A stretch of 64,000 nt of DNA from a virus, in IMG/VR virus record IMGVR_UViG_3300045241_000115, positions 1 to 64,000 of that record; one strand, given 5' to 3'. The position numbers and the translations under genes are program-made. Positions within the stretch are counted from its first letter, which is position 1. Each line of letters begins with the position of its first letter. The notes under the pieces were generated by a model. The model ran no database searches. It had not been told where the DNA came from and worked only from the letters and a program-made list of their open reading frames with translations. Positions 2,608 through 56,181 of the stretch are shown here, piece by piece.

Positions 2608-2953
2608 CTGTTACGTCTCCCCACTTTTCCTTGATGTGATCGAGCATGTCCTGCATGCGTTGCAGGTCGTTGTGAAAGTCGCGGATCAATTCGCGCCCGG
2701 AGCGCAGATAGTGCCGCGGCGGCAGCAGCTCGGGCGGTGCCGGCTCAACGTCGGTATAGCGATGGCCCTTGGCGGTCTCGTTGACGCGGCCCTGATTGTC
2801 GCCGATGTAGTTCGCGATGCGATGCTGATCGTCGCCGCGCAGCAGCATGCCTTTGATCAGCGCGCCATCGGACGGAGGCTTGCTCGCTGCCGTAACGTAT
2901 GGCGGCGTCTCCGATGCGACATAGACCCGATGGCGCTTGCTGGGAGCGGTCAT
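2597..2953 (-). CDS. Hypothetical protein, possible HTH
   Basis: Operon context; QHRIANYIGDNQGRVNE is HTH-like. Confidence 0.6.
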   Translation of the reverse strand: MTAPSKRHRVYVASETPPYVTAASKPPSDGALIKGMLLRGDDQHRIANYIGDNQGRVNETAKGHRYTDVEPAPPELLPPRHYLRSGRELIRDFHNDLQRMQDMLDHIKEKWGDVTDDD

Positions 2954-3714
2954 GCGACGATCGCTCCGCCGCCTCTACGGCCAACCGTCTTGCGGCCATA
3001 GCTGTCCAATGCCACGCGTATTTCCGCCGCTCGCCTTTCCGCCTCGGCTATGCGTTCGAGCATATGCTTGCTAAGCGCAGCCATCTCAGCGTCCAGGGAG
3101 GCCATCTGATTGCGCAGCGCCGCGAGCTCAGGATCGATCAGGATCTTGCCGTATGCCGCCTCGCGGATTTTTGTCACTTCGGCCCACGGCACACCGACGC
3201 ACTGACCGATCGCCTGATCGCTTATCGCTTCGCCGTCAGCATTCGGCAGGTAGCAACCTTCCTTGTCGTCGAAGAACTGGTCGAGCATCCGGCGGATTTC
3301 CAACCGCTGGGCCGACGTCAGTTCAATATGGTCCCGCGGCATGTGCGGTCTCTCCTGTTCAGGCGGCGGCAGTGCCGGCACCGGTTCGGCGTATCCATCG
3401 ATCACTGGAGGCTCACTCATCGCGGGAATAACCACGCTGTCGAGTTCGACCTGCCGCCGCGAACGCGACCACGCCGGTGTCTTGCGGCAGTCCGGGCAGT
3501 ACACCCTGTTGACAGCCTCGCCGTCGGTATCCCATCCGCGCTTGCGCGCTTGTGCACCAAAGAAATTGCCGTGCTTGCGCGGATTGTTGTTCGCGATTTC
3601 CAATTCGTGCAAACACGAAACGCAGGTAAATCGCACCACCGACCGGCTCGTGTTTCCAACGCTGACAACGGCACTGCTGTAAGCTCTCGGTGTTCCTGAT
3701 GCCATGTCATGCAC
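2950..3714 (-). CDS. Hypothetical protein with Zn ribbon and C-terminal coiled coil
   Basis: CVSC...CPDC pair; coupled to neighbours. Confidence 0.65.
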   Translation of the reverse strand: MHDMASGTPRAYSSAVVSVGNTSRSVVRFTCVSCLHELEIANNNPRKHGNFFGAQARKRGWDTDGEAVNRVYCPDCRKTPAWSRSRRQVELDSVVIPAMSEPPVIDGYAEPVPALPPPEQERPHMPRDHIELTSAQRLEIRRMLDQFFDDKEGCYLPNADGEAISDQAIGQCVGVPWAEVTKIREAAYGKILIDPELAALRNQMASLDAEMAALSKHMLERIAEAERRAAEIRVALDSYGRKTVGRRGGGAIVA

Positions 3715-5509
3715 TCACCTCTATCGAGTGATGTTCCGGCAGCGGTTTGGCGTTCAGCTTCCGTTTGTCGCTGAGATAGTCGAACACCTGCGGTGGCGTT
3801 TCCGGATAATCCTGCGGCACCGGCAGCTTGTTCGGCATTTCCAAAACGCGATGGCCGTACAGGTTCGGCTTGAAATAAACAGCGACGCCTGCCTCGCGCG
3901 CCTGCGCCACCAGATCGGTGATCCAGTTGAACGGCGGGCGCCATTCCGGCGTGCGCGATGATGCCGACGCGCCACCAATCACCATCCACTGAAACAGATC
4001 GAGCCGCTTGAAGCGCAGCGGTTCCAGCATGGGCTCGATCGACAGCCAGCGCACCGAAGCGTTGACGTTGGCGAACGCAGCCTCGGCGTTGTTCACTCGC
4101 GCCTGCAGATCGACCGTGGTGCCCATCCAAGTGTTGTGGGGAATGTCGAACTCAGCCATCCGCTTGGGAAACTTGGTGAGCACGAGGAAATTCCAGTTGG
4201 GCGCATTGCGGATCGAGCCCAGCACGGCATTGATCCATTCCGTCGGTACCCACCGTCCGAACCAATCGGACATCGAACCGCAGAACACGTTCCGCAGTCG
4301 ATGATCGGTATTCGCGCCCTTCGGCACGCTCATGTTGCGTGGCGTGTTGAGCTGCACCGGCTTGAACGCCGGCGCGAAACCGTGCGGAAAGGCGTGCGCC
4401 GTGTTGCCCAGCGTGGCGATATCGCGGGCATAGCAATACGGGCAATCATGCAGGCAGCCGGTGATCGGGTTCCACGACCACTTCGCCCAATCGATGCCGT
4501 CGCCCTTCTGTTCGTTGAACGTGCCGGTCGCCGGCACCTTGCGGGGATCGGTCAGGATGGCCCGCGTGTTCTCATCGAGTTCGGTCCATTCCTTGAGAGA
4601 GACGGTAGCGAACAAGGACACGGCCCGCTCCTGCGATGCGAGCGCTTGGGCCCGTTCCGCGGCGCGTTCATCCTCGATCTGTCGGATCAACGGCCGCAAC
4701 ACGCGCTCAAGCTGGACTGGCGTCGATATGTTCTTGCCATCGAGCACTACATCGACGGTGCCCTCCAGCAGCGTATCGGGATGCGCGTCGTCCAGCTCGC
4801 GCAGCAGTTCGACATAACGGCCGAACATGGCGAGCATCTCGCGCACGTCGTCCAAAGACAGCAGGCCGCGGACGACTCGCTTGCCGATGCCGTCCCAATC
4901 GAACGCCCATTTGGCCTCGGGAGCGCCTTTGAACCCACGTACCATTGCGCGCGTCTCATCACGCGACAGATCATCGCGAATGACGGTCGATACCAAGGCA
5001 GACCACAGCCACGGCTCGGCTCGGTGTATTTCCACCAGACTGGCGAAATATTCGCCGAGCTTTGTACGGCCCGCCGTACAGGCTTCCGCTACCCTGGCCG
5101 CGTTGATCTCGTCCTCAACCGCACTGGCAGACCGGCCGGCCTCGCCGGCATAGCCGCGCACCGTCTTCCCGCTCTTCAGCGCGTGCATGCCACGTTCAAG
5201 CGACGTCAGTTCGCTCTGTGCGTTGGCTAATACCAACAGCATATAGGCTTCATCGTCACTCATCTCGCGCACCCAGGTCGGCACTTTTTTGAGCTCGGAT
5301 TTGCGCGCCGCTTTCACGCGGTTGTGGCCAGATAAGATCTGGAACGCGCCGTTGAGTGGTCGCGCCATGATCGCGTGAGCCGCGTCGAACCCGTGCTCGC
5401 GGATCAATGCGGCAATCTGGTCGATCACGTCGGTCCGTTCTATCAGCCGCGGATTGCCGGGATGCGGTGTCAGCTTATCGAGCGGAATTAGCTGCGGCGT
5501 ATCACTCAT
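3707..5509 (-). CDS. ParB N-terminal domain fused to DUF5131 (Gp37/Gp68-like radical SAM)
   Basis: HPGNPR and SGHNRVKAA (ParB); WNPITGCLHDCPYCYA, VFCGSMSDWF, LTKFP, WLSIEPML, WMVIGG (DUF5131). Confidence 0.9.
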   Translation of the reverse strand: MSDTPQLIPLDKLTPHPGNPRLIERTDVIDQIAALIREHGFDAAHAIMARPLNGAFQILSGHNRVKAARKSELKKVPTWVREMSDDEAYMLLVLANAQSELTSLERGMHALKSGKTVRGYAGEAGRSASAVEDEINAARVAEACTAGRTKLGEYFASLVEIHRAEPWLWSALVSTVIRDDLSRDETRAMVRGFKGAPEAKWAFDWDGIGKRVVRGLLSLDDVREMLAMFGRYVELLRELDDAHPDTLLEGTVDVVLDGKNISTPVQLERVLRPLIRQIEDERAAERAQALASQERAVSLFATVSLKEWTELDENTRAILTDPRKVPATGTFNEQKGDGIDWAKWSWNPITGCLHDCPYCYARDIATLGNTAHAFPHGFAPAFKPVQLNTPRNMSVPKGANTDHRLRNVFCGSMSDWFGRWVPTEWINAVLGSIRNAPNWNFLVLTKFPKRMAEFDIPHNTWMGTTVDLQARVNNAEAAFANVNASVRWLSIEPMLEPLRFKRLDLFQWMVIGGASASSRTPEWRPPFNWITDLVAQAREAGVAVYFKPNLYGHRVLEMPNKLPVPQDYPETPPQVFDYLSDKRKLNAKPLPEHHSIEVSA

Positions 5510-6411
5510 GCGGCTTCCTCCCCTTCATCATCATCGAACGACAACAGCGACGGACGCTTGCGCTCTAGCACCGACAATTCCAGCTCGTTCTGAAAATTGC
5601 CCTGCCGCTCACCGTTGACCATGTTCATGATCTGCAGCCCCTCCTCGCTGTCCCAGTGATACATTCCGAGTTTGCGATGATCGCCGGTCGGATGATTACG
5701 GCCAATCGCTAGCCAGAACCGGTTTTTGCCAAAGGTCTGACGGCTTACCAGCCAATGTCTGCGCTTGAGTTTCGTGCGAATTTCGTCCGGCGAGAGCGCC
5801 GCGAACTGTTCTTCCTTTCCCACCAGGCGGAGCTTGGAGTCTTTGCCTTGCGCCTGTGAGTACCATCGATAATTTATGTTGAGGATGATATCGATCTTCA
5901 GGAATTCTTCAGCGAACTGGATGACTTCATCGACCGGCACGCCACCGCCGCCATTCTTGGCGCGGTAGAACCAGGCGTTGGGATCGCAGAGCAGACTGCC
6001 CAGCGCGTGCTGCGGCCTGTCGCGCCGACGCACCTGTTCGGCGAACCGCCCGATGACCGACTTATTATCCTCGCAGAGCAGCGAGAGGCCGGATTGCGGC
6101 AAATGACCGTAATGGACTAGCCAATGTTCCAACTTAGCGATCGCAGCGGCGTCGTAATCGCAGAACCAGGCATAGACCGGCATTGCGGTAAGTTGGCGCT
6201 GCGCCAGCTCACAGAACACCATTGGCGAGCCAGGACATCCGGCGATTTCATTCCAGCCCGAACCGGCATTGAGATCGAGATGGAAATACGGCCGCGTCTG
6301 ACGCCATGCGTTTTTCTTGGCCCAGAAGTTGGCCATTCTCATGCCGATCGACTCTGCCGATCCGATTTTGCGCTCTTTGTCGAGCGTGCCGTCTCCCTGT
6401 CCCTGCTTCAC
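5506..6411 (-). CDS. Three-Cys-motif partner protein (TcmP-like, SAM-binding fold)
   Basis: HLDLNAGSG, GSP and LCDPN motifs; adjacent to DUF5131, its usual partner. Confidence 0.7.
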   Translation of the reverse strand: MKQGQGDGTLDKERKIGSAESIGMRMANFWAKKNAWRQTRPYFHLDLNAGSGWNEIAGCPGSPMVFCELAQRQLTAMPVYAWFCDYDAAAIAKLEHWLVHYGHLPQSGLSLLCEDNKSVIGRFAEQVRRRDRPQHALGSLLCDPNAWFYRAKNGGGGVPVDEVIQFAEEFLKIDIILNINYRWYSQAQGKDSKLRLVGKEEQFAALSPDEIRTKLKRRHWLVSRQTFGKNRFWLAIGRNHPTGDHRKLGMYHWDSEEGLQIMNMVNGERQGNFQNELELSVLERKRPSLLSFDDDEGEEAA

Positions 6412-6629
6412 AGCGTTTCCCCCTCATCCATCATTGGCAGCGTGCGCGCGACCAGCACGCCGCCGCGGCGCCGCGGATTGGCTTTCAGAGCCAATCGATG
6501 TCGCTTGCCGATCACCGCCCGCACCGTGACACCGAGGCGGTCGGCGATCTCGGGATCCGTCAGCCCCTCGCGCACCAGCCGGCGCAGCGAGGCGGTACGC
6601 TCGTCGGACCACAGATTGTCCCAGGGCAT
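6408..6629 (-). CDS. GcrA-like HTH regulator
   Basis: WSDERTASLRRLVREGLTDPEIADRLGVTVRAVIGKRHRL matches the GcrA N-terminus. Confidence 0.8.
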   Translation of the reverse strand: MPWDNLWSDERTASLRRLVREGLTDPEIADRLGVTVRAVIGKRHRLALKANPRRRGGVLVARTLPMMDEGETL

Positions 6630-7192
6630 CAGTTCACCCCCGCGAACAGCGGACCGGCGGCCGGACGGATGCCGAGCCGTTGGCGGCAGTACCAAAGCCA
6701 CAGCAGCGCAGAGTCGCCCGCGTTATGGTCCGGCACACGCCAGCCCATGCGCAGGCAATGCCTCAGCACCTCGCGTTTGACGGTGTCCTTGGCGAAATAG
6801 CGCCGGCCCATGATGTCCGCGCGCACCGTGCCGGGATCGACCTCGAAGATCGGGATGCTGGCGTTCCACGCCTCCATGCGCGCGATGCCGCGCAGGGTGA
6901 GCTGCTGGGCGGTGATCATCAGCGAAGTGTGGGCGGGCAGCGGCAGCGGCGCTTCCAGCACGAGCTGCGCCGGCGCCATGCGTTCGATCGCGTCGATCAT
7001 CCAGTCGTCGAACGCGAGATAGCGCGCGTCCTCGGTCGGCTCCCGCAGCCAGACCGAGCCATAGTGTGGCTTCGGATCGCCGATCAGGCCGTAGGTCCAA
7101 CCGAAGGTGCGGGCGAGGTCGAGGGCGAGGATGCCGCCAGAGCGAAAATTGGGTGCGGCCGCGAGGGCCGCCTGCTGGGCGGGTCGCGACAC
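6629..7192 (-). CDS. RuvC-like Holliday junction resolvase
   Basis: ILALDLA..GW, LVLEAP, HNAGDS acidic motifs. Confidence 0.75.
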   Translation of the reverse strand: MSRPAQQAALAAAPNFRSGGILALDLARTFGWTYGLIGDPKPHYGSVWLREPTEDARYLAFDDWMIDAIERMAPAQLVLEAPLPLPAHTSLMITAQQLTLRGIARMEAWNASIPIFEVDPGTVRADIMGRRYFAKDTVKREVLRHCLRMGWRVPDHNAGDSALLWLWYCRQRLGIRPAAGPLFAGVN

Positions 7193-7235
7193 GGCAAGAC
7201 TCCTGAAGGGGGAGAACGGTCAGCCGGGCCGCGTG

Positions 7236-7880
7236 TCAGTAGACGGTCGCCCCATTCTCCGTGGCGACGACCGGCCCCCGCCGTCGCGCCGAGCGCTGCC
7301 CTGTACGACGCGGCGTACGCGTTTGTCGTACGGGCTTGTTCTCCAGCGGCAGGGGATCCTGCTTGCGGCGCGGACGGCCCCTCCCCCTCCTGGCGGTGGC
7401 GACCGTCGCATCCGGGCCAAGCTCGCGGGCCTGCGCCGCCTTGCCCTTGCGCCACCAGTCGGTCCAGTGGACGTGAAGCTCGCTGCCGGGAGGATATGGG
7501 CAGTCCTCGACCGGGACGCCGTGGCGACCGGCGCGGTAGCCGGTTTCCTCGGCATCCCAGAGGTCTTGCCCGGCCTGGGTTTTTTCGGTGATGGCGAAGT
7601 CCATCCCGTCGAACAGTGACTCGGGCGTTACAGGGATGTGACGCAAACCGCTGTAGCGGATCTCGTCACGCAGGTTATTCACAACGGTTTCCGGTTCGAT
7701 CTTGCCGTTCCGAATCGCGCGCCGCATGGCTTTCTCGTTATGTCCCGCCGCCTTGATCTGTTTGTAGATCAAACGTAATGCCGAGTTTTCCTCGTCGCAC
7801 CTGCGCTGCTGGGCCATGACTTTGTGCATCCAGTCCAGCGCCTCGTCATTGGAGATCGCTTCGGAGGCGTTTGTAACCAT
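7236..7880 (-). CDS. GapR-like DNA-binding domain fused to an Rmf/CrpP-like motif
   Basis: LRLIYKQIKAAGHNEKAMRRAI, then GYRAG..CPY..W..WRKG. Confidence 0.55.
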   Translation of the reverse strand: MVTNASEAISNDEALDWMHKVMAQQRRCDEENSALRLIYKQIKAAGHNEKAMRRAIRNGKIEPETVVNNLRDEIRYSGLRHIPVTPESLFDGMDFAITEKTQAGQDLWDAEETGYRAGRHGVPVEDCPYPPGSELHVHWTDWWRKGKAAQARELGPDATVATARRGRGRPRRKQDPLPLENKPVRQTRTPRRTGQRSARRRGPVVATENGATVY

Positions 7881-7977
7881 GACGTTTTCCGACCTTTCGC
7901 TAACGTTTCCCGGAATTGTCGCGATTAATTAATTCGGCAAGAAAGTTATGCATCTTGTATTGAAAGGGGGTCCCGCA

Positions 7978-8259
7978 TTAATCTCCCGGCGTGACTCGGA
8001 AAGGGCCTGCCCGACCGCTGTGGGCCGATACGGTCCGTAGGTAGTCGTAGGTGATGCCGTGGATATGTCGCACTCGTGCCGACCTCTCGACCTGTTCCCA
8101 ATGCACCTGGGGGATCGATGAGCGACGCCGCCATGCCACCACTGTCTGGTACTGGACACCGCAGTCATCGGCGAGAACCCGCATTGCGGGCCACATCCGA
8201 ATGATGTCCGCGAAACTCAGTATGGCGAGGGCAGTGCCTTGCCGTGACCCGGATGCCAT
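7978..8259 (-). CDS. Cro-like HTH protein
   Basis: SFADIIRMWP..LADDCGVQYQTVVAWRRRSSIP; divergent from the CI-like gene; start uncertain. Confidence 0.75.
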   Translation of the reverse strand: MASGSRQGTALAILSFADIIRMWPAMRVLADDCGVQYQTVVAWRRRSSIPQVHWEQVERSARVRHIHGITYDYLRTVSAHSGRAGPFRVTPGD

Positions 8260-8271
8260 CAGACTGCCATT

Positions 8272-8298
8272 ATTGTGCCAGGCGCAAAATTCTGACAA
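8272..8298 (-). promoter_or_regulatory. Leftward promoter with putative repressor operator
   Basis: Minus strand -35 TTGTCA at 8298-8293; operator ATTTTGCGCCTGGCACAAT at 8290-8272 matches 9068-9086 at 17/19. Confidence 0.6.
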
Positions 8299-8315
8299 GG
8301 GGGTACAGACAGTCA

Positions 8316-8978
8316 ATGTCTGAAATCAAGACCCTCCCCCGGCCGGAGGATCGTCGCCTGATCGGCGGTCGATTGCGAAAGGCGCGCGAGGACGCCGGTT
8401 TCAAGACCGTGCGCGAGTTCGTCCTGCGCAGCGGGCTCAAATACGACACCTATTATCAGCACGAGACCGGGCGTCGTCCGCTGACGGTCGGCGCCGCGAC
8501 GCTTTATGCCAGGCTGCTGCAGGTCTCTCCCGCATGGATTTTGACAGGAGACACTTCCCACCGCCCAGGGTTGTGTCGTATCGTTGGGGAAGTCGGTAAC
8601 AACGGCACGGTTGTGCTGTTCGACACAGAGGGAGGCATCGATCCCGCGGTGGTCCCAAATGCGGACGAACACCTGGATATCCTGCGGGTCACCGACGACA
8701 GTGGAAAGCCGTTTACCGGCCTAAACGACTTGGTCTATTTCCGCCCTCTGCTCGGCTACAACAAGCTCGAATGCCACGGCGTCGATTGCGTCGTCCGGCT
8801 GGCGGACGGGCGCGTGCTGATCCGTCAGGTGATTGCCCAGGGCGGGAACCTCGCGACCCTGCTCGCCTACAACGGGAAACCGGAACTCAACGTCGAGATC
8901 GCCGCCGCATCGCCTGTGGAAATCGTGCGCAAGAGGCGGTCGTTGGGTCCCGTCGAGCAGCAGCTCGTCGCCGCCTGA
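8316..8978 (+). CDS. CI-like repressor (XRE HTH plus S24-like C-terminal domain)
   Basis: RLRKAREDAG..TYYQHETGRR..VSPAWILTG; C-terminal DCVVRLADGRVLIR. Confidence 0.85.
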   Translation: MSEIKTLPRPEDRRLIGGRLRKAREDAGFKTVREFVLRSGLKYDTYYQHETGRRPLTVGAATLYARLLQVSPAWILTGDTSHRPGLCRIVGEVGNNGTVVLFDTEGGIDPAVVPNADEHLDILRVTDDSGKPFTGLNDLVYFRPLLGYNKLECHGVDCVVRLADGRVLIRQVIAQGGNLATLLAYNGKPELNVEIAAASPVEIVRKRRSLGPVEQQLVAA

Positions 8979-9008
8979 TCTTCGTCTGATCTGATCCGAT
9001 AATTCAGC

Positions 9009-47840: not shown

Positions 47841-48782
47841 TCACGAGGCGCGACGCGCAGTGCCGCCCCAGGCGGCCCAGCGTTCGGCGTTGCGCTTGTT
47901 GATGTCCTCGATCTTCGCGCGCAGGCTGTCGTTGGTGGCCCGCTGCTGCTGACCGAACTGCGGGCTTGGGATGTTCGCCGCATTGTTCATCGAACGCATG
48001 CGATCGGACGCATCGATGAACAGCATGCGCACCGCATCGCAGGACATCGTCTTGATCGCATCGCTGGTATGACGTCCGATCGCCACCATGCCGCGCTCCG
48101 TGCCGGCCGCCGTCAGCAGAGCGGAACGACGCGTATCGCAGATGCGTTGCCCGGCCTGCTTCATGCGGTCAGGCCCGAGCGCGCCATCGAGAACGCCGAT
48201 CTTGATACCGGGAGCGAGCACTTCCGCGCGCGCCTTGGTATCGCGGATCACCGAGTTCATCGCCGAATTGACACGCGCGACCAACGTCGCATCGCCCATC
48301 ATCGACTTGCCGGTCTTGAGCGCGGGATCGGCCTCCATCAGATCAGGCTCGGCCGATGGCGGATCAGAGGACGTAGCGGCGCCCTCGCCGGGCGGGTCGG
48401 CCAGTTCCTCGTCCTTGGTCTCGTCCTTGTCGTCCTCGTCGTCGTCCTTTTTGGGCGGGAACTCATCGCGCCCGGTCAGTTTGTCGGTGATCGCTTTGAC
48501 CGCGTCGCGCAGCTCTTTCAGAGTGTCGTCGGTCTTCTTTTTCCAATCGTCGTCGTCGTCACCGTTCTTGTCGGGATCGGCATCGCCGGTGCCGTTGCCG
48601 CCTTCGTTGTGGTGATTGTGGATGACGATGGCCTGCTTGCCTTCGTCACCGTCCGGCTCGTCGTGTTCTGGGCCGGCTGCCGCAGCAGCTTCCTCGGCAT
48701 CCAGCACGATCTTCGCGACCGACGCCTTGTCGCGCGCGAAGAACCCTTCGTAGATGTAGTCACGCAACGTGCGCTTGCTCAT
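47841..48782 (-). CDS. Capsid scaffold-like protein
   Basis: Acidic; RAEVLAPG and INKRN..W resemble the usual C-terminal half of DUF2213 proteins; GGAGG RBS. Confidence 0.7.
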   Translation of the reverse strand: MSKRTLRDYIYEGFFARDKASVAKIVLDAEEAAAAAGPEHDEPDGDEGKQAIVIHNHHNEGGNGTGDADPDKNGDDDDDWKKKTDDTLKELRDAVKAITDKLTGRDEFPPKKDDDEDDKDETKDEELADPPGEGAATSSDPPSAEPDLMEADPALKTGKSMMGDATLVARVNSAMNSVIRDTKARAEVLAPGIKIGVLDGALGPDRMKQAGQRICDTRRSALLTAAGTERGMVAIGRHTSDAIKTMSCDAVRMLFIDASDRMRSMNNAANIPSPQFGQQQRATNDSLRAKIEDINKRNAERWAAWGGTARRAS

Positions 48783-48820
48783 CGTTGCCCTCCTTTGCTG
48801 GCAGTAGTCACAGCCGCAAA

Positions 48821-48997
48821 TCACGGCTGGTCGGGCTCGTCGGGATAATCGATGTCCTCGTCGAGCTTCTCGATCGGCGATTTCTGTCCGACCAAGGACG
48901 GCACACCGAGTTGCTCGGCCTCGCCGTCCCACACCACCTCGTCGTCGATGGTGACGATCATGCCGTCGGACGTGTTGCTCTTGGGGTCCTTGGCCAT
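48821..48997 (-). CDS. Small acidic protein
   Basis: MAKDPK..DEPDQP, directly after the ART domain. Confidence 0.5.
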   Translation of the reverse strand: MAKDPKSNTSDGMIVTIDDEVVWDGEAEQLGVPSLVGQKSPIEKLDEDIDYPDEPDQP

Positions 48998-49008
48998 CGC
49001 TTTCCCTT

Positions 49009-52000
49009 TCAGACCGTGGTGCAGCGAACGATGTGCTGCTTGCCGACTTTCTCGATTTCGTAGACATCGAATGCGATGCCGTGCCGCAGCAGCACTTCGT
49101 TCTCTGAGACGTAGGATTTGTCTGCCGCCCATATGCCGAGTGCCGGCGTTCCCTTTCGGGCGACGATTTCGTAGATCACGCTCTTGGATGAGAACGCCGC
49201 TTCCTTCGCCATGCTGGTCGAAGTGAAACCGAGGCGCTGTGGCCGCACGATTTTGCCGGCCGCCAGACCGTCCTTCCATTGCTGCAGCATCGCGTCGGGA
49301 ACGTCCTCGCCGCGTCGCAGTATCGCGTCCGCGTGCAGCACCGCGTCGGGATGCTCGAACAGAAGGTCGATGTCATCGACCATTTCCTGGGCGTATGCCG
49401 GCGCCGTGGCGTCGCTGCGCAATGCACCGTTGATGCCGCCGGACCCGCCTTTGTAGGAGACACATGCGGCCTTGCCGGCCTTGCTCACGTCGGGCTTGGT
49501 CCACCACGAACGATCGAGCGAGGGGCAAATAGCTCTGGCCTGCGGAGCGGCGGCGCTGGGGACGTCGTGTGCCTGCTTACGTTTTGCCTGCGCTATCTCG
49601 AGGCGCTTCTGGTTCGGCGTTCGGACCGCGTTGGGGCTGGGTGTGGTCGAGGAGGACGGGGACGCAGATGTGGCCGGACTCACGGTTCCGACCGGCGTAC
49701 CGCTCAGCTTTTGGATCCATTGGTTGGCAAGTGTTTTGACGGAAGGATCGAGCGATGTGTTCGCCAGCGCGGTGATCTTCGCGATCTTCGCTGCGCTGAT
49801 GTTGGAGGGATCGACCGCGATCTTGAAGATTTGGGCATGTAGCGATGCCGCGCTTTGCGGCGGCGGCGTTGAGGCCGCTGGCTGAGGCGTCGGCGTCGCG
49901 GCCGGTTTGGGCGGTACGGACGCGGTCGGTTTCGGCGCCGCCTTGGCCGAAGGCGTGACGCCATGCGCCGCGCCCACATGGGCGATCATCGTGTTGGCGT
50001 ATTTGGCGATCGATCCGTGTTTATAGTTGCTGGCGAGCTGCTGGATCTGCGCGGCCGCCTCGTGCGGGTCGGTGCCTTTTGTCAGCAATTCCTTGGTGAG
50101 CGCGTGCAGCTTCTTGCCGGCCGGCGTCGACCAATAGGCGGGCGGATGAGGCACGGTCTGCGCCGCAGCCGCGACCTTGCTCCCACCACTGCCGCCGCCG
50201 CCCCCACCGCCGCCCGATGTGAACTCGCCACCGCCCGGGCTGCCCTTCGGCACGCGTGGGTGCTCGCCTTCCACGAAGTCGGCGTCGGCGTAATCGATGT
50301 CCTCGCCGTTGTCGTAGTCGATGTCAGCGCCATCGTCGGCCTCGCCTTCGTCCTCGTCCTCGAGGAATTCCAGCGGGTCGAAGCCCAGCATGGCGATGAC
50401 ATCGGCGGGCGTTACCTCGAGCAGCTCGTCGTCGGGATCCTCGTCATCCTCGTCCGGATCCGGCAGCGGAGATCCGACCTCGCCCCAATGGGCGTCGGGA
50501 AGTTCTCTGTCCCCGTCGTCATCGGCCCATGCAGCGTCCGCAGTGCCGCCGATGCCGGCCGATTGCTGCCATTGCGCGAACACGACCGGCGAGATGTAGG
50601 ACTGCAAGGCGATCGTCGGCGTGTTGCCGAGCTTCTGCGAAACGATGGTGGCGACGTGTTTGACCGCGCGCTTGTACTCGCGCTCGTTGGTCGGCTCCGG
50701 CGTTCTCTCCACTTCATCGAGCGCGGTCTGCGTGCCGAGGTGGGTGCGGAAATCCTTGGTCTTGAACGAGCCGTCGCCGAGCGAGTGGACGTGCTTGAGC
50801 AGCCCGCCTGCGTTGACACCGAACAGATCGCCGCGTGCGCCTGCGGCCTCTTTGCGCTTGAGCAGCATCTTGGCGATGCCGGGGTCCTGGATCGGCAGGT
50901 CGAGGGAGACGCCCTTCTTGCCGGTGAAGCGCAGCCGCACGCCGTCCTTCAGCGAGACGACGTGGCGACCTTGGAGTGTGGTGGCGCCGTATGCCTGCGT
51001 CTCAGCCCCGGTATCGCCGGTGCTGCCGGGCCGGATGCCGGTCGCCATGATCAACGCGGTCGCATCAGCCGCCTCGCGGGTCGCAAGCTCGCGCCGCGCC
51101 GCCTCGTTCTGTTTGCGAACGTCCTTGAACGCCTCGGCGAGCTTCTTGGCGCGCGCGAACTTCGCGGCCGCCTGTTTGGCGGAGAATTCCGCCGAATAGA
51201 CCAATTGCCTGCGACCCTTCACGTCGCGTCCGGTCGCCTGCAGTTTGGCCGCGGGATCGGGCGAATAGGTGACGTCGGTCCAGGCGGGCGGGAGCTTGAG
51301 CTTCTGGATGTGCTCAGGCAGGTCGGCGCCCGACGAAGTGACGCGTTTGCCGTTGGCGACCTTCGTCGTCTCGTGATGAGCGGCAGCGCCACCGCCGCCA
51401 CCGCCACCTGACGTGAACTCACCACCGCCAGGACCGCTTTTGACGCGCGGATGCTCGGACTCAACGAAGGCGTCGTAGCTGTATTCGGGTGTGCCGCTGT
51501 CGAGGATCGTGCATCGGCTGCCGCAGCGACCTTCGTCCACCAACGCCACGTGGTTGCAGAAGATGTTGCGCTGTCGGCCGAGGCCAGGAGCCGTCTGCTC
51601 GTAGTGCGCGTTGTACCCCACGCTGATCGCGCGCTTGCCGCGCTTGACCGCATCGATGCCGCGTCGTGTCGTGAAGATCAGATCCGCAAGCAGCAGGTCA
51701 TCGTAGGCGCCCTCACCGCGGCGCGGATTGGACACGTAGCCTATGGCGAGATCGGAATAGTTGTCTGGCCCGACCGCATCGTACGGATGATCGTCCACCA
51801 GCGGTTTGCCAATGAAGCTGCGCACGCTGTCTGGCGAGAACACTTCGGACGCCTCGCGGTCGACGTGCACGCGCCCGCCCTGGTCGCCCTGCAATGGAGG
51901 GACTTCATTTTCCCAGTAAATCTGCGTGCCGGTGCGCGCGATGGGCACGTTGCGGCAGATCAGGTAGCCTTCGGCGGTCTCTTCCTGATTGGCCGAGAGT

Positions 52001-52023
52001 TTGGAGACGGTATGCCATTCCAT
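49009..52023 (-). CDS. Polyprotein: DUF2213 + type IB topoisomerase + ADP-ribosyltransferase
   Basis: GYLICRNVPIARTG..NHVALV..GRCG; PPAW, GIRPG, GKKG, KDFRT, LGNT, SYI; INGALR, RRG, FTSTS, ENEVLL. Confidence 0.9.
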   Translation of the reverse strand: MEWHTVSKLSANQEETAEGYLICRNVPIARTGTQIYWENEVPPLQGDQGGRVHVDREASEVFSPDSVRSFIGKPLVDDHPYDAVGPDNYSDLAIGYVSNPRRGEGAYDDLLLADLIFTTRRGIDAVKRGKRAISVGYNAHYEQTAPGLGRQRNIFCNHVALVDEGRCGSRCTILDSGTPEYSYDAFVESEHPRVKSGPGGGEFTSGGGGGGGAAAHHETTKVANGKRVTSSGADLPEHIQKLKLPPAWTDVTYSPDPAAKLQATGRDVKGRRQLVYSAEFSAKQAAAKFARAKKLAEAFKDVRKQNEAARRELATREAADATALIMATGIRPGSTGDTGAETQAYGATTLQGRHVVSLKDGVRLRFTGKKGVSLDLPIQDPGIAKMLLKRKEAAGARGDLFGVNAGGLLKHVHSLGDGSFKTKDFRTHLGTQTALDEVERTPEPTNEREYKRAVKHVATIVSQKLGNTPTIALQSYISPVVFAQWQQSAGIGGTADAAWADDDGDRELPDAHWGEVGSPLPDPDEDDEDPDDELLEVTPADVIAMLGFDPLEFLEDEDEGEADDGADIDYDNGEDIDYADADFVEGEHPRVPKGSPGGGEFTSGGGGGGGGSGGSKVAAAAQTVPHPPAYWSTPAGKKLHALTKELLTKGTDPHEAAAQIQQLASNYKHGSIAKYANTMIAHVGAAHGVTPSAKAAPKPTASVPPKPAATPTPQPAASTPPPQSAASLHAQIFKIAVDPSNISAAKIAKITALANTSLDPSVKTLANQWIQKLSGTPVGTVSPATSASPSSSTTPSPNAVRTPNQKRLEIAQAKRKQAHDVPSAAAPQARAICPSLDRSWWTKPDVSKAGKAACVSYKGGSGGINGALRSDATAPAYAQEMVDDIDLLFEHPDAVLHADAILRRGEDVPDAMLQQWKDGLAAGKIVRPQRLGFTSTSMAKEAAFSSKSVIYEIVARKGTPALGIWAADKSYVSENEVLLRHGIAFDVYEIEKVGKQHIVRCTTV

Positions 52024-52209
52024 GATGACGGGGCGCCTCCCCTGACCGACGAGGAACGACACAAGCAGCAAAAGTTGCGGCTGTGGGCTATGGAGTTGTC
52101 CTATTCCATGCCGGAATTAGACGACCTGATGCTCGGTCGGCCGCCTCGTCCGCCGCCGTCATTCTGGCAGCGCGTGAAGCGTTGGTTTCGGCGGCTTTAT
52201 CGCGACTGA
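52012..52209 (+). CDS. 65-aa antisense protein containing a major-capsid-like segment
   Basis: GGAG RBS; LRLWAMELSYSMPEL vs capsid LRLWAQELSYTMPEL; C-terminal FWQRVKRWFRRL. Confidence 0.65.
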   Translation: MPFHDDGAPPLTDEERHKQQKLRLWAMELSYSMPELDDLMLGRPPRPPPSFWQRVKRWFRRLYRD

Positions 52210-52248
52210 TAGACGCGCACGCGCCCGTTGCGCATCACGTCGCTGCGT

Positions 52249-52539
52249 TCATCGCCGAGTGACCTTGACGCGGCCTGACGGCATCACATCGATGCGCAAA
52301 ATGCGCCTGGTCGCGCTGTCCTTCGGCTTTTGACGTGCCGCCTTGGTTTTGGCGTTACGCTCGAACGCCGACTCCTTGCCCTCCCAGTACTCTTCCTCTT
52401 TCGGCTTCTCGGCCATGGCATCTACCCCTGTGATCGTGCCCTTGTTCTTGGAGCGGTAGAACACCTCCTCGCCCTTCTCCTCGCCGTACTGCTCCTTCAT
52501 GGCCGCGAGGATCTTCTCGCCCTTCGCCGTCAACGGCAT
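52249..52539 (-). CDS. Conserved head-module hypothetical protein
   Basis: MPLT.KG.KI..AM..QYG..KGE.VFY.S.NKG.I.G. Confidence 0.75.
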   Translation of the reverse strand: MPLTAKGEKILAAMKEQYGEEKGEEVFYRSKNKGTITGVDAMAEKPKEEEYWEGKESAFERNAKTKAARQKPKDSATRRILRIDVMPSGRVKVTRR

Positions 52540-52796
52540 CAGCCGTCTAACTCGCAGGGATCGATCATGTACATGACCGCCGACAGCATCGCCGCCTTGG
52601 CCTCTGGATCAACGGTCAACTCGCGCAACTGGTCGTGGATCAGGAAACACATCGCCAGCAGCACTTCGCCGCGCGAGTGGCCGACCGCCGCTTTATCCAG
52701 TTTCCTCGCCAGCGCTTCCACGCGATCCTTATCGAATAAGCGGCCCGGCTCCAGCGCATACAGAATGTCGTCGGTGAGCTGCATCACGGTTTCCAT
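52539..52796 (-). CDS. Hypothetical protein
   Basis: TGATG coupling. Confidence 0.5.
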   Translation of the reverse strand: METVMQLTDDILYALEPGRLFDKDRVEALARKLDKAAVGHSRGEVLLAMCFLIHDQLRELTVDPEAKAAMLSAVMYMIDPCELDG

Positions 52797-52869: not shown

Positions 52870-53406
52870 TCACCTCCCCCGAGAGAGTACGAACCGGGCG
52901 GGATAGTTGATAGCGCCCCATCGCGGCGTCGCCCTGCCCACCATACCGGCCCGCTCCATCACCTTGATCTGCTCGTAGACCGCCACCCGCGTCAGTCCAC
53001 AGCCCGCGGCGATCTCAGCAACGGTGACGTCGTTGTGTGAGGCCAGGAATTCCGTTATCCGCTTCTGTCGCGACGGCCCCACCAGCGTATCCTCGCGATT
53101 AACTTCCGGGGATGTTTTCAGTCGGGCGCGATAGGCAGCGCGTTTGATCGCGATGAACCGCAACGGCGCGGTCTGGCTGAGGCCCGGCTTGATAATGCGA
53201 TAGACGGCCATCGGTTTGTCGTCGATCCGCACGAGATAACTATGACGCGACGCGCCGCCGCCTATCACGACACCATGGCCTTCAACGATGGGATGTCCGC
53301 CGACCGCCGCACCGTGCACCACCACGCGGTCACCAATCTGAAACGGCGCATCCGACGGGATCGGATGAGCGTATTGCGGCGTCATCCTGCGGTTCGCGCG
53401 CGGCAT
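52870..53406 (-). CDS. Protein with C-terminal winged HTH
   Basis: TVAEIAAGCGLTRVAVYEQIKVMERAGMV. Confidence 0.6.
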   Translation of the reverse strand: MPRANRRMTPQYAHPIPSDAPFQIGDRVVVHGAAVGGHPIVEGHGVVIGGGASRHSYLVRIDDKPMAVYRIIKPGLSQTAPLRFIAIKRAAYRARLKTSPEVNREDTLVGPSRQKRITEFLASHNDVTVAEIAAGCGLTRVAVYEQIKVMERAGMVGRATPRWGAINYPARFVLSRGR

Positions 53407-53409
53407 ACC

Positions 53410-54222
53410 TCAGTCAGGGATGATCGGCAGCGCGACGCAACGACAATTCCAAATCTGGCCGGGATGGCTGTGATAGTCGGGCGGATCAGACAGCGGCGGA
53501 TCATCCCAACTGTGCACCGAATGGTTGAGCTTGCGATGCGACGGCCGGACTTTCCAATCGCCCACCGTCTGCCAGATGTACTGCTCGGCACCGATATGCT
53601 TGGCCCGTGCCTGGGTCAGCACCGAGGCTGTGCGCGCCGTCTCGGTTCTGGCGATCAGCGTCGCGCGGTTCTTCAGCCATTCCTCCGTCGCCTTGGGATG
53701 CGCCTCGGCAAGCGCCTCCTCGATTTCCGCTGTGCGCTCGGGATATCGCGCCGAAGTCTCCAATGCGGCGACCGTGCGCTCGTGCACGCGCTCGGCGGCT
53801 TCGGTGGGCAATGACGTGATCAATTCGACCTGCTCGGCGAGTAATTGCTGCATGTGTTCGCCGGTCGGGGCGTTGCGGATTTCCATCTGCAGGCCGGCGG
53901 ACATGCGGGCGGTGTATTTCTGCCACGCCGTTTTGTTGCGTCGATTGACCTCGCGGATCATGCGCCACGCCGTCGCCCGCGCCCACGGCGTGATCGCCGT
54001 CTTATAGGCGCGCATCGCTTCGCGGATACGAGCGAGCTGCGCCGGCGTGAACGGCGTCTTGGGATCCTCGGGCGCATGCGCCTCGACGATGCGCGCGATA
54101 TGGCGCGCAGCCTGACGCAGTTGAGCGCCGTACGAGGCCTGAGCGTTGCGGGCCTTCTGGAATTGGGCCTCGGCTGCTTCCGCCTGACGTTGTGCTTTGC
54201 GGCGTTCCGATTGCGACGGCAT
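53410..54222 (-). CDS. MuF/gp7 head morphogenesis protein
   Basis: RATLIARTETAR, YIWQT.GD..VRPSH, HPGQIWNCRC. Confidence 0.9.
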   Translation of the reverse strand: MPSQSERRKAQRQAEAAEAQFQKARNAQASYGAQLRQAARHIARIVEAHAPEDPKTPFTPAQLARIREAMRAYKTAITPWARATAWRMIREVNRRNKTAWQKYTARMSAGLQMEIRNAPTGEHMQQLLAEQVELITSLPTEAAERVHERTVAALETSARYPERTAEIEEALAEAHPKATEEWLKNRATLIARTETARTASVLTQARAKHIGAEQYIWQTVGDWKVRPSHRKLNHSVHSWDDPPLSDPPDYHSHPGQIWNCRCVALPIIPD

Positions 54223-54226
54223 CGCA

Positions 54227-54652
54227 TCAGACGTTCGGCGGATCCTTGAGCGCCAGCGGGTTGTCGCGCGCCCATTGGTTCCAGGCAACCGCCAGATCGT
54301 AGTCGGCGAACTTGGCGTAGATCGGCCGGTTTGCGCCGTTGTTGGTCGCCAGCGCATAGAACATCTCGGTCGGTGTGCCGCGCGCGATGTCGGGAGCGAA
54401 CAGCGTGGTGCCTTCGCGCACGATCCAAGCCGGCGATTTGACCGGCGATGTGTCAGGCGGCGGTCCCCCCATCGAGCCGAGGATCACCGGCACGACCGGT
54501 ACCGCGCCCGTCTCATCGACGAGCCATGCCAGCACGGGGTTGTCGTGCAGGATCACCCAGGCGAGGCCGGGCCCGATACCATCGACGGGGTCGGGATTGT
54601 ATTCGCAGGTGACCAAAATCGAGCCGGTGACCGGTGCAACGGCGAGGGTCAT
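54227..54652 (-). CDS. Hypothetical protein
   Basis: ATGA-coupled to the portal gene. Confidence 0.6.
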   Translation of the reverse strand: MTLAVAPVTGSILVTCEYNPDPVDGIGPGLAWVILHDNPVLAWLVDETGAVPVVPVILGSMGGPPPDTSPVKSPAWIVREGTTLFAPDIARGTPTEMFYALATNNGANRPIYAKFADYDLAVAWNQWARDNPLALKDPPNV

Positions 54653-56181
54653 TCCTCATTCTCCATGCTGCTCGCGGCACCATTGCCGCTCTTGGGAACG
54701 GGGGTCGAGACGCCCGGCATTCCTGGACCGACGCCCCCGCCAGCGCCGTTCGTCTTGCCACCAGGGGCCGCTCCGGGCATTCCCGGCATCGTCTCTCCAG
54801 GCTCGGGCTGCTCCCACGGCGCGGGCGCCTCGCCTGCGTCCTCGATGTCCTGCTCGGAGATGTTCGTGAACCTGCCTGTTTGGATGCTGCTCTGTTTCAA
54901 CTCTTTCAGCGCGATCTGCGTGGTGATCACGCCGGCGTCGTGCAGCAGCTTGATTGTATCGGAGTCGCGTTGCGCGACCTCGGCCTTTTCCATCTCGTTC
55001 AACTGATAGAGCGAGTTGAAGGTGAACGCGAACGTATCGGGCGTATCGGTGCCAAGCGTGCTGCGCCATATCACGTCGAACAGCTTGGTCAGCGGCCTGC
55101 GCAACCGCGCCTCCTGCTGCGCCTTGATCATGTCATAGTACTGCCGGAGGTCGCTTTCCCCGGTAGAGTTCAGCCCAGCCGGCGATTGACCGAACAGCCG
55201 CACGAGCGGAATGCCGAGGGCGCCCGAGATCTGCTGGCCCAGCATCAGCAACGTCTCAGACAGACCAGCGAACGAATACGAGTGCGTTTCGAATTCATCC
55301 TCGGCATCGATGACCGTCAGCCCTTCGTTGGACTGATAAATCCGCATCAGTTCCATCAGCTTGTGGAACTTCTCGGTCAGCTCGGAATTGAATGCGACGA
55401 GGTTGCGGTAGTCTTTGACCTTGTACGTGCGCAGATAGGCTTTATAGAGAAGCTGCGCGGTGCCCATCGTGCCGCTGTCAAATGCGACGAGACGGTCCTG
55501 CAACCGCTCGATCACGCTCATGCCCCACAGGTTCTCAGTGATGCGTTGATTGAACGGCAGCCCGATGCCGTCGAGACGAATGCAGCGGGAGTAATGCACC
55601 TTCATGTTCGGCAGATACGGCGCCTGCTGAACCACGTCGTACTGCACGGGCATGCCGTAATCGGGGCCGAACTCCTTGACGAGGTTCTGATACGTTGGCT
55701 GGACCATCCAACGATCCAGCACGACGAAGCCTTTGAGCTGATCCTTCGCGATGCGGTCGGTCAGCAAAGGCTGCGCCGTGTCCTGACCGTCGATCATCAT
55801 GACCATCAGCGCGCCGCCGTACAGCCGGCTCCATTTGATCGTGTCGCCCAAGCTCTGCCACATGCAGAGTTCGTTGATGCGGGTGTGGATTTTTTCGATG
55901 TCGTCAGGCGGCGTGTCGGAATTCATGATCACGCCGGCCCGCGTCATGTCGTCGGCCACCACATCAACCGCGGCGCCGACGACCCACGAGCCGCGATACA
56001 TCCACTCGAGCTTCTGCCGCAGGCGAGTGAGCGGCAGATAGCCGTAGGTCGTGGCCGCCATCAGGTTTTGCGTGCCGATGCCCACGCGCGCGGCGAAGTT
56101 CTCCACCGAGTCCGTCGTCATGGCGCCTTCCCATGACGATGCACCGGCGCGCACCCGGATGCGTGGGCGCGTGCCTGACAT
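54649..56181 (-). CDS. Portal protein (DUF1073)
   Basis: YRGSW..VD..ADDMTR, WSRLYGG, IPLVRLFGQSPAGLNSTGESD..YYD. Confidence 0.9.
   Translation of the reverse strand: MSGTRPRIRVRAGASSWEGAMTTDSVENFAARVGIGTQNLMAATTYGYLPLTRLRQKLEWMYRGSWVVGAAVDVVADDMTRAGVIMNSDTPPDDIEKIHTRINELCMWQSLGDTIKWSRLYGGALMVMMIDGQDTAQPLLTDRIAKDQLKGFVVLDRWMVQPTYQNLVKEFGPDYGMPVQYDVVQQAPYLPNMKVHYSRCIRLDGIGLPFNQRITENLWGMSVIERLQDRLVAFDSGTMGTAQLLYKAYLRTYKVKDYRNLVAFNSELTEKFHKLMELMRIYQSNEGLTVIDAEDEFETHSYSFAGLSETLLMLGQQISGALGIPLVRLFGQSPAGLNSTGESDLRQYYDMIKAQQEARLRRPLTKLFDVIWRSTLGTDTPDTFAFTFNSLYQLNEMEKAEVAQRDSDTIKLLHDAGVITTQIALKELKQSSIQTGRFTNISEQDIEDAGEAPAPWEQPEPGETMPGMPGAAPGGKTNGAGGGVGPGMPGVSTPVPKSGNGAASSMENEE

Follow-up and report, generated by a model that had tools for sequence, protein, structure and literature searches.

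Here we describe a 1004-residue polyprotein, encoded among the head genes of an uncultured soil phage of about 74 kb, that probably loads a type IB topoisomerase (TopIB) and an ADP-ribosyltransferase (ART) into the capsid for delivery with the DNA, in the manner of a 'polyvalent protein'. The gene lies in a window of 64,000 nucleotides (positions 1 to 64,000 of IMG/VR virus record IMGVR_UViG_3300045241_000115, a genome record of 73,959 bp that is rated complete), in which the minus strand from 52023 to 49009 translates as a single stop-free frame; the genes and protein modules of the window given below lie on the same strand. The ATG at 52023 is the likely start, since it aligns with residue 1 of the relatives' proteins. 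The original prediction, made from the sequence of the window, had placed a DUF2213 head protein, a TopIB and an ART in this one frame, and both translation and Pfam bear this architecture out.

The DUF2213 domain occupies residues 1-176 (51496..52023), where Pfam matches residues 14-176 with an E-value of 7e-43 and so upholds the assignment. An AlphaFold2 (AF2) model of residues 1-230, built on an alignment of 102 sequences and confident over residues 1-170, has an assemblin-like fold of the kind seen in T4 gp21-like prohead serine proteases. Indeed, the top Foldseek matches of the model are all herpesvirus maturation proteases together with T4 gp21, the best structural match, at probabilities of 0.97-0.99, yet with E-values of only about 5e-3. 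H79, S134 and H158 are invariant across the 102 aligned sequences, and their order and spacing resemble those of the triad of the human cytomegalovirus protease (His63/Ser132/His157). The gene sits between the portal and major capsid genes with a scaffold gene adjacent, and the domain is N-terminal across 6773 representative DUF2213 proteins. Judging from the modelled fold, DUF2213 is very probably the head maturation protease, although we found no data on its biochemistry in the literature searched. DUF2213 proteins have a median length of 461 aa (137 newly fetched best matches); ordinary protease-scaffold fusions measure 400-500 aa, and in these the G-R-C-G-x-R-C end of the domain runs straight into the scaffold part.

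Residues 216-490 (50554..51378) comprise the bacterial N-domain and the catalytic core of a TopIB. Pfam family Top1B_N_bact (PF21338) matches residues 234-267 (E 2e-11, 43.9 bits against a cut-off of 27) and Topoisom_I (PF01028) matches residues 279-471 (E 7e-17, 61.9 bits against a cut-off of 23.7); a TopIB profile search of the genome that contains the window likewise gave a match above the cut-off. Among solved structures, the best match is the Deinococcus radiodurans TopIB (2f4q, E 4e-25), to which R331, K369, R426, N467 and Y476 align at chain positions 137, 174, 239, 280 and 289, as counted off the printed alignment; these are presumably its catalytic pentad, R137/K174/R239/N280/Y289. 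The assignment and the catalytic residues first proposed for this module thus hold, and each of the motifs named for it can be located (GIRPG at residue 329, GKKG at 368, KDFRT at 423, LGNT at 465 and SYI at 475). Of 108 related cargo TopIBs, 107 have this same pentad, a degree of conservation that speaks for selection on activity, and by its catalytic residues the module appears to be an intact DNA-relaxing enzyme. Directly behind it, residues 491-582 (50278..50553; isoelectric point (pI) 4.1) form an acidic module containing TPADVIAMLGFDP, found at residue 538. A motif of this module, T-P-x-D-V-I-A-M-L-G-F-D-P, follows TopIB in 10 related proteins and in the related loci L001, L002 and L015, and in L020 it stands in the open reading frame (ORF) next after TopIB; no Pfam or PHROG family matched the module. 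What had been called an acidic spacer is indeed acidic but is more than a spacer, as it is a conserved module that travels with TopIB. It is possible that this companion acts as a cis inhibitor of the enzyme.

The C-terminal unit ends in a C3-like R-S-ExE ART (residues 799-1004, 49012..49629, followed by the stop codon at 49011-49009). ADPrib_exo_Tox (PF03496) matches residues 930-993 in Pfam (E 2e-7, 31.2 bits against a cut-off of 23.4), and the motif residues are R904, S935-T-S937 and E974-N-E976, within the previously named strings RRGE (903), FTSTS (933) and ENEV (974). The catalytic arginine, TSxS and ENE are invariant in six ART homologues at 35-48% identity. An AF2 model of residues 612-1004, with a predicted local distance difference test score (pLDDT) of 77.8, consists of two helix bundles and an ART domain that starts at residue 799 and that Foldseek matches to C3bot (2a78_B; E 1.4e-9, probability 1.00, about 212 aligned columns, target template-modelling score (TMt) 0.66-0.70). 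Pfam, Foldseek and the six homologues therefore agree with the predicted ART and its R-S-ExE motifs, and the ExE motif by itself points to arginine specificity. The bundles, each of three helices (residues 629-687 and 728-773, 49699..50142) with a proline-rich linker between them, travel with the ART; weak tblastn matches to them lie upstream of the ART in L010, L011, L014, L027, L028 and L033. For residues 618-800, there was no match in the ESM Atlas, no homologue in a search of 5.8 billion proteins and no Pfam or PHROG family.

The original prediction omitted a gene that lies between the end of the ART and the scaffold gene: an acidic ORF of 58 aa (48821..48997, pI 4.05) with the motif V-x-W-D-G-E-A-E, whose product we predict to be an antidote (immunity protein) to the ART. 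No Pfam or PHROG family matched this protein. A homologue directly follows the ART stop in L010, L011, L012, L014, L015 and L017, and the ART stop overlaps the start of the small ORF (ATGA) in L010-L012 and L014. When IMG/VR was searched with the small ORF alone, all nine loci found had an ART immediately upstream, three or four of these loci being new. In L027, L028 and L033, MuF comes directly after the gene that ends in the ART, and by analogy with L017 we take this ART-bearing gene to be the portal. Modelled as a complex, the ART and the 58-aa protein score 0.87, against 0.48 for the best control. When the score was calibrated, 58 of 80 solved complexes attained this mark, as did 2 of 110 mismatched pairs, counts that apply only roughly here, own alignments having been used; the runs share at least 81% of contacts, and the partner has a pLDDT of 69-70. 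The modelled interface covers R85-E87, S116-S118 and positions 154/157 in the numbering of the ART alignment, that is, the catalytic arginine, the STS serines and the ExE region, so that the 58-aa protein is predicted to sit over the nicotinamide adenine dinucleotide (NAD)/catalytic cleft. An antidote gene would make sense if the ART were meant to act in another cell, and a variable C-terminal toxin with a small gene directly downstream is the layout of a polymorphic toxin-immunity cassette. A 26-nt direct repeat (48838-48863 and 50283-50308, 88% identical) brackets the cassette of second tag (described below), helical bundles, ART and antidote. In its first copy the repeat encodes D-I-D-Y-P-D-E, within the last part of the 58-aa ORF, and in its second E-D-I-D-Y-A-D, just before the second tag; the TopIB-only relatives P0006 and P0129 end in an I-D-Y-P tail as well. 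The repeat may have been left by an insertion, or it may supply a functional tail at the C-terminus.

Both enzyme units open with the same junction tag, [FW]xE[SAG]xHPR..GxF, of which the window holds only two copies, both in the polyprotein ORF. Tag 1 (residues 183-215, 51379..51477) reads D-A-F-V-E-S-E-H-P-R...G-E-F and tag 2 (residues 583-620, 50164..50277) reads D-A-D-F-V-E-G-E-H-P-R...G-E-F, each followed by a glycine run. A loose search pattern (HPR and then G-x-F) that required neither the residue at position -5 nor that at -3 recovered 156 copies in 115 related proteins among those fetched. Position -5 is F or W in all but one of these copies (155/156), -3 is E in 154/156, and -2 is a small residue, mostly S, A or G; the stretch downstream is rich in glycine and serine and the upstream side is acidic. 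The tag stands at anchor-cargo and cargo-cargo boundaries alike, on portal, MuF and DUF2213 anchors, and was absent from ordinary, cargo-less DUF2213 proteins; in L033 it precedes the ART. Tag 1 is probably disordered, as modelled by AF2 with a pLDDT of 39-59. A scan of nine loci (L015, L017 and L020-L026) detected DUF2213 homologues in five (L017, L021, L022, L024 and L025), portal-TopIB phages included. T4 gp21 cuts by the rule L/I-x-E, and the tag core of a hydrophobic residue, x, Glu and a small residue resembles this rule by analogy. Because of this resemblance, and because gp21 has the closest fold to the DUF2213 domain, we read the tag as a putative protease release site. A tblastn search of deposited phages with the 29-aa tag gave no match, the query being too short.

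The relatives of this phage combine a constant anchor with variable cargo. In related IMG/VR loci (L001-L016), whose core head genes are mostly 55-88% identical to those of the window and in the same order, the DUF2213 domain is 77-81% identical across the clade and 58% identical in the more distant L016. The cargo behind it includes TopIB (L001, L002 and P0003-P0008), NUDIX, DUF7178, Zeta toxin, ART and unknown domains, in agreement with the proposal that the protease domain serves as an anchor. In P0005 and P0008, a single ORF holds the protease part, then TopIB and then the scaffold part. Their C-terminal part, homologous to the ordinary scaffold half, may well bind capsid protein, and these two proteins offer what appears to be the best indirect evidence that cargo follows the scaffold into the procapsid. 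A point missing from the original prediction is that TopIB cargo is far commoner on the portals of other phages: by a hand count among the 119 relatives listed, TopIB is attached to a PF06381 portal in about 65, to MuF in 3, to a PF05136 portal in 1 and to DUF2213 in 9 more. Such cargo is frequent in metagenomes and nearly absent from deposited phages, with a single weak tblastn match to the TopIB module among 50,697 deposited phage records.

In every case examined (the window, L010-L012, L015, L017, L027, L028 and L033), a long open frame within the head gene block runs in phase into the ART, which forms its C-terminal end. The ART-bearing ORF starts with DUF2213 in the window and in L011-L012, and lacks the first 50 residues in L010, at a contig end. 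In a more distant phage group, represented by L017 (TerL 55%), L027, L028 and L033, the helical-ART-antidote cassette closes the gene that precedes MuF. In L017 the ART ORF (4437-8996, 1519 aa) overlaps the portal match, and in L027, L028 and L033 (upstream of 3001) the ART frame continues without a stop as far as the fetched sequence extends. Certain relatives have the polyprotein divided between two ORFs that abut (2714-4945 and 4942-8265 in L008, likewise in L009, and at 151-5304 in L015), the second of which starts about 70-100 aa before a tag with no recognisable anchor. This split could reflect a frameshift, a sequencing error or tagged cargo without an anchor.

The neighbouring genes form a head module, which on the minus strand runs from TerL through the portal, a short MuF gene, a helix-turn-helix gene, a 96-aa gene, the polyprotein and the 58-aa ORF to the scaffold, followed by a cement protein, the major capsid protein (PF09950) and DUF4054. 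Neither the portal (54649..56181, PF06381) nor the MuF head-morphogenesis gene (53410..54357) carries cargo here. The MuF protein was predicted to be short in this phage and is: it has 315 aa and ends with the MuF domain (PF04233, residues 212-309), and MuF is short in the relatives too. The 178-aa winged-helix gene (MarR/ArsR-like, 52870-53406) between MuF and the 96-aa gene has no counterpart in related loci and for this reason may be a moron within the head operon. The 96-aa gene directly upstream of the polyprotein (52249..52539) occupies the same position in L001 and L003-L009 at 51-81% identity, and matched no Pfam or PHROG family.

That the scaffold-like part normally attached to DUF2213 is a separate gene here (47841..48782, 313 aa) is confirmed by phrog_1961 (417 aa), in which the first half corresponds to the DUF2213 portion of the polyprotein and the second half (positions 197-414) to this gene. 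The scaffold start at 48782 sits behind a GGAGG site and corresponds to the point at which the scaffold begins in ordinary 400-500-aa DUF2213 proteins. A longer ORF of 408 aa (47841-49067) was rejected as the scaffold gene, being mostly an arginine-rich off-frame read. A frameshift or readthrough that would join the ART to the scaffold was rejected likewise, as there are three genes in three frames with the real 58-aa gene between. The frame just upstream of the scaffold ATG (48783-48830) reads C-G-C-D-Y-C, and C-x-C-D/E-x-C-like strings precede the scaffold methionine in P0005 and L015 also; the string may be left over from the G-R-C-G-x-R-C with which the protease domain ends, or it may represent a conserved RNA or ribosome-binding-site element.

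We propose the following scheme for how the polyprotein would work. The DUF2213 domain would be an assemblin/gp21-like maturation protease that normally enters the procapsid together with the scaffold. In this clade, the ancestral protease-scaffold gene would have been opened, with cargo cassettes placed on the protease and the scaffold usually left as a separate gene, each cassette opening with its tag in a disordered linker. Within the prohead, the protease would cut at or near the tags, freeing a TopIB unit (the enzyme and its acidic companion) and an ART unit (two helical bundles and a C3-like, arginine-type ART), both of which would leave the head along with the DNA when the next cell is infected, while the 58-aa protein would keep the ART inactive in the producing cell. 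After delivery, TopIB could relax the injected DNA for early transcription, as in poxviruses, or collapse host supercoiling, and the ART could modify arginines of host proteins, as T4 Alt does. Encapsidation, tag cleavage, ejection and the targets of the enzymes are what we infer from the genes; each packaged enzyme would have its own brake, with the tags probably serving as release sites.

Several observations weigh against this scheme. The AF2 monomer of residues 1-230 leaves tag 1 outside the protease cleft, which is uninformative either way, and the distant portal-ART fusion in L017 carries no HPR tag. Furthermore, the tag may serve for targeting or retention and not as a cut site. The scaffold is separate in this phage, which leaves the procapsid entry of the protease-cargo protein unexplained. 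Among cultured relatives none bears cargo of this kind, and the closest of them, Rhizobium phage RHph_N28_2 (TerL 56%), has a conventional head module.

It is conceivable, if unlikely, that the polyprotein is packaged and ejected whole, as the virion RNA polymerase of phage N4 is, with the HPR tags acting as docking, retention or spacing elements that bind the scaffold, the capsid interior, the portal or DNA. The tags do lie in disordered linkers with no predicted cis docking to the protease, and the ORFs of L008 and L015 that start about 70-100 aa before a tag without an anchor would suit an address label. However, a targeting signal would be redundant on cargo that is already fused to the portal or the protease, where the tag is nevertheless present, and portal-fused cargo would need release before it could leave through the portal channel. 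The co-occurrence of the DUF2213 protease with the tag, and the likeness of the tag core to the L/I-x-E rule of T4 gp21, the best structural match of DUF2213, also favour cleavage over whole ejection. We regard it as quite unlikely that delivery plays no part and that both enzymes work late, inside the cell that makes them, with TopIB serving replication, concatemer resolution or packaging, the ART modifying phage or host proteins and the protease doing nothing more than processing. The gene does lie in a late head operon, and TopIB could plausibly relieve torsion during DNA packaging. On the other hand, a linked antidote predicted to cover the ART active site argues that the ART is unwanted in the producer, the same cargo is found on portal, MuF and protease-scaffold proteins, all of them internal head components, and the free variation of cargo among close relatives suits conflict effectors better than core replication or packaging functions. 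A toxin with an adjacent neutraliser whose cassette changes genomic position also recalls toxin-antitoxin and polymorphic-toxin modules; the ART and small ORF would then make up a toxin-antitoxin or exclusion module that happened to insert at the 3' end of the protease gene and does not serve as virion cargo. This seems improbable, as the ART ends a long open frame in the head gene block in every upstream frame examined, a free-standing ART was not seen in the loci examined, and the cargo tag precedes the ART in both the window and L033.

That the polyprotein is an assembly chimera or a decayed pseudogene is scarcely credible. A Logan contig of 3989 nt from a soil-metagenome run matches 48858-52600 with 0 differences and even depth and, since this one contig spans the whole ORF, the ORF is not an assembler chimera; the run is possibly the source sample, in which case the contig represents a second assembler and no independent sample. 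The exact four-part combination is present on a single contig only among the relatives listed, a point that counts against our reading as well, whereas its pairwise sub-architectures (DUF2213-TopIB, DUF2213...ART and TopIB...ART) each recur within one ORF on independent contigs from independent samples. With 1004 open codons and every catalytic motif intact, the frame does not look like a pseudogene, and the worry attached to the original prediction that the fusion could be an artefact is not substantiated. Tiny Logan contigs (80-151 nt, depth 2-4) do join 50218 to 51389 and 48876 to 50299 with sides of 20-21 nt, connecting the repeated tag regions as a chimera might; these cross the two tags and the D-I-D-Y repeats and could stem from related phages of the sample or from cassette-less variants. 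We dropped the claim of cassette-less variants, sides of 20-21 nt being too weak for it.

Should the proposed delivery hold, DNA topoisomerase would join the enzymes carried in tailed-phage heads, and a maturation protease would be found able to carry cargo. With 107 of 108 pentads intact, phage TopIB is under clear selection and offers a testable setting for the role of bacterial TopIB and for the poxvirus parallel. We suggest, as a possibility that we hold with some doubt, that the DUF2213 protease and the tag form a general, exchangeable load-and-release system of many uncultured phages, with TopIB as its commonest payload and the acidic module as a safety catch; any enzyme behind a tag on protease, portal or MuF would then be loaded, clipped free and injected. 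On that view, phages and poxviruses would share the strategy of a TopIB inside the virion, and the poxvirus-like TopIB genes scattered among bacteria could plausibly have phages as their reservoir. The tag also provides a sequence handle for packaged effectors in metagenomes and a candidate cut or address signal that may be reusable for capsid loading, and the ART with its 58-aa partner is a predicted, compact new inhibitor-enzyme pair.

One of the known systems close to this is T4 Alt, an arginine-specific ART that is packaged, loaded through the assembly core and injected. T4 internal proteins carry a short capsid-targeting signal that gp21 removes after a hydrophobic-x-Glu sequence, and a packaged ART, core loading and gp21-type cleavage of a signal are proposed here too. 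In contrast, Alt is a separate protein with an N-terminal signal and not a protease fusion, we detected no sequence similarity between it and the polyprotein ART, and to our knowledge no T4 antidote gene for Alt has been described. The MuF polymorphic toxins of temperate phages (Jamet et al. 2017) reportedly combine variable C-terminal toxin domains with an immunity gene. They are alike in having a constant N-terminal head-protein part, variable C-terminal toxins and a small cognate gene downstream, whereas the anchor here is DUF2213 and two enzymes stand in series with tags between.

The TopIB shares its family and pentad with bacterial poxvirus-like enzymes (2f4q/3m4a), with Asn in fourth position as in the bacterial enzymes. 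Poxviruses carry a TopIB (PDB 2h7f) inside the particle, where it supports early transcription. The enzyme described here differs from both in being built into the head polyprotein of a phage, behind a leader tag and in front of an acidic module. The ART likewise has the fold and R-S-E motifs of C3-like and binary-toxin ARTs (C3bot, CDTa, iota Ia; PF03496), with an ExE as in their arginine-specific members, and differs from them in its identity of about 20%, in two helical bundles that replace the binding domain and in being paired with a 58-aa acidic protein. A search of the literature turned up no paper in which TopIB is fused to a phage head protein, and none that deals with the HPR tag or with the function of DUF2213.

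Polyvalent proteins, as characterized by Iyer, Burroughs, Anand, de Souza and Aravind (2017, PMC5512222), are single polypeptides from the head gene region that join several effector domains with no relation to one another; they are predicted to enter the virion, to be cut by a built-in peptidase and to reach the cell along with the DNA. The polyprotein, with TopIB and ART as unrelated domains of one polypeptide among head genes, is of this type, and it falls into a known class alongside MuF toxins and T4 Alt. PMC5512222 also cites MuF effectors, and ART, NUDIX, InPase and Zeta domains are cargo in both settings; TopIB, DUF2213 and the HPR tag go unmentioned in it, and 'topoisomerase' occurs once, in the reference list. 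The processing enzyme described there is a zincin-like metallopeptidase, whereas the candidate here is a head-maturation serine protease that is also the anchor. What appears to be new is this use of the protease as an anchor, together with the protease-TopIB-scaffold intermediates and an ART-antidote cassette that moves between the protease and an anchor upstream of MuF.

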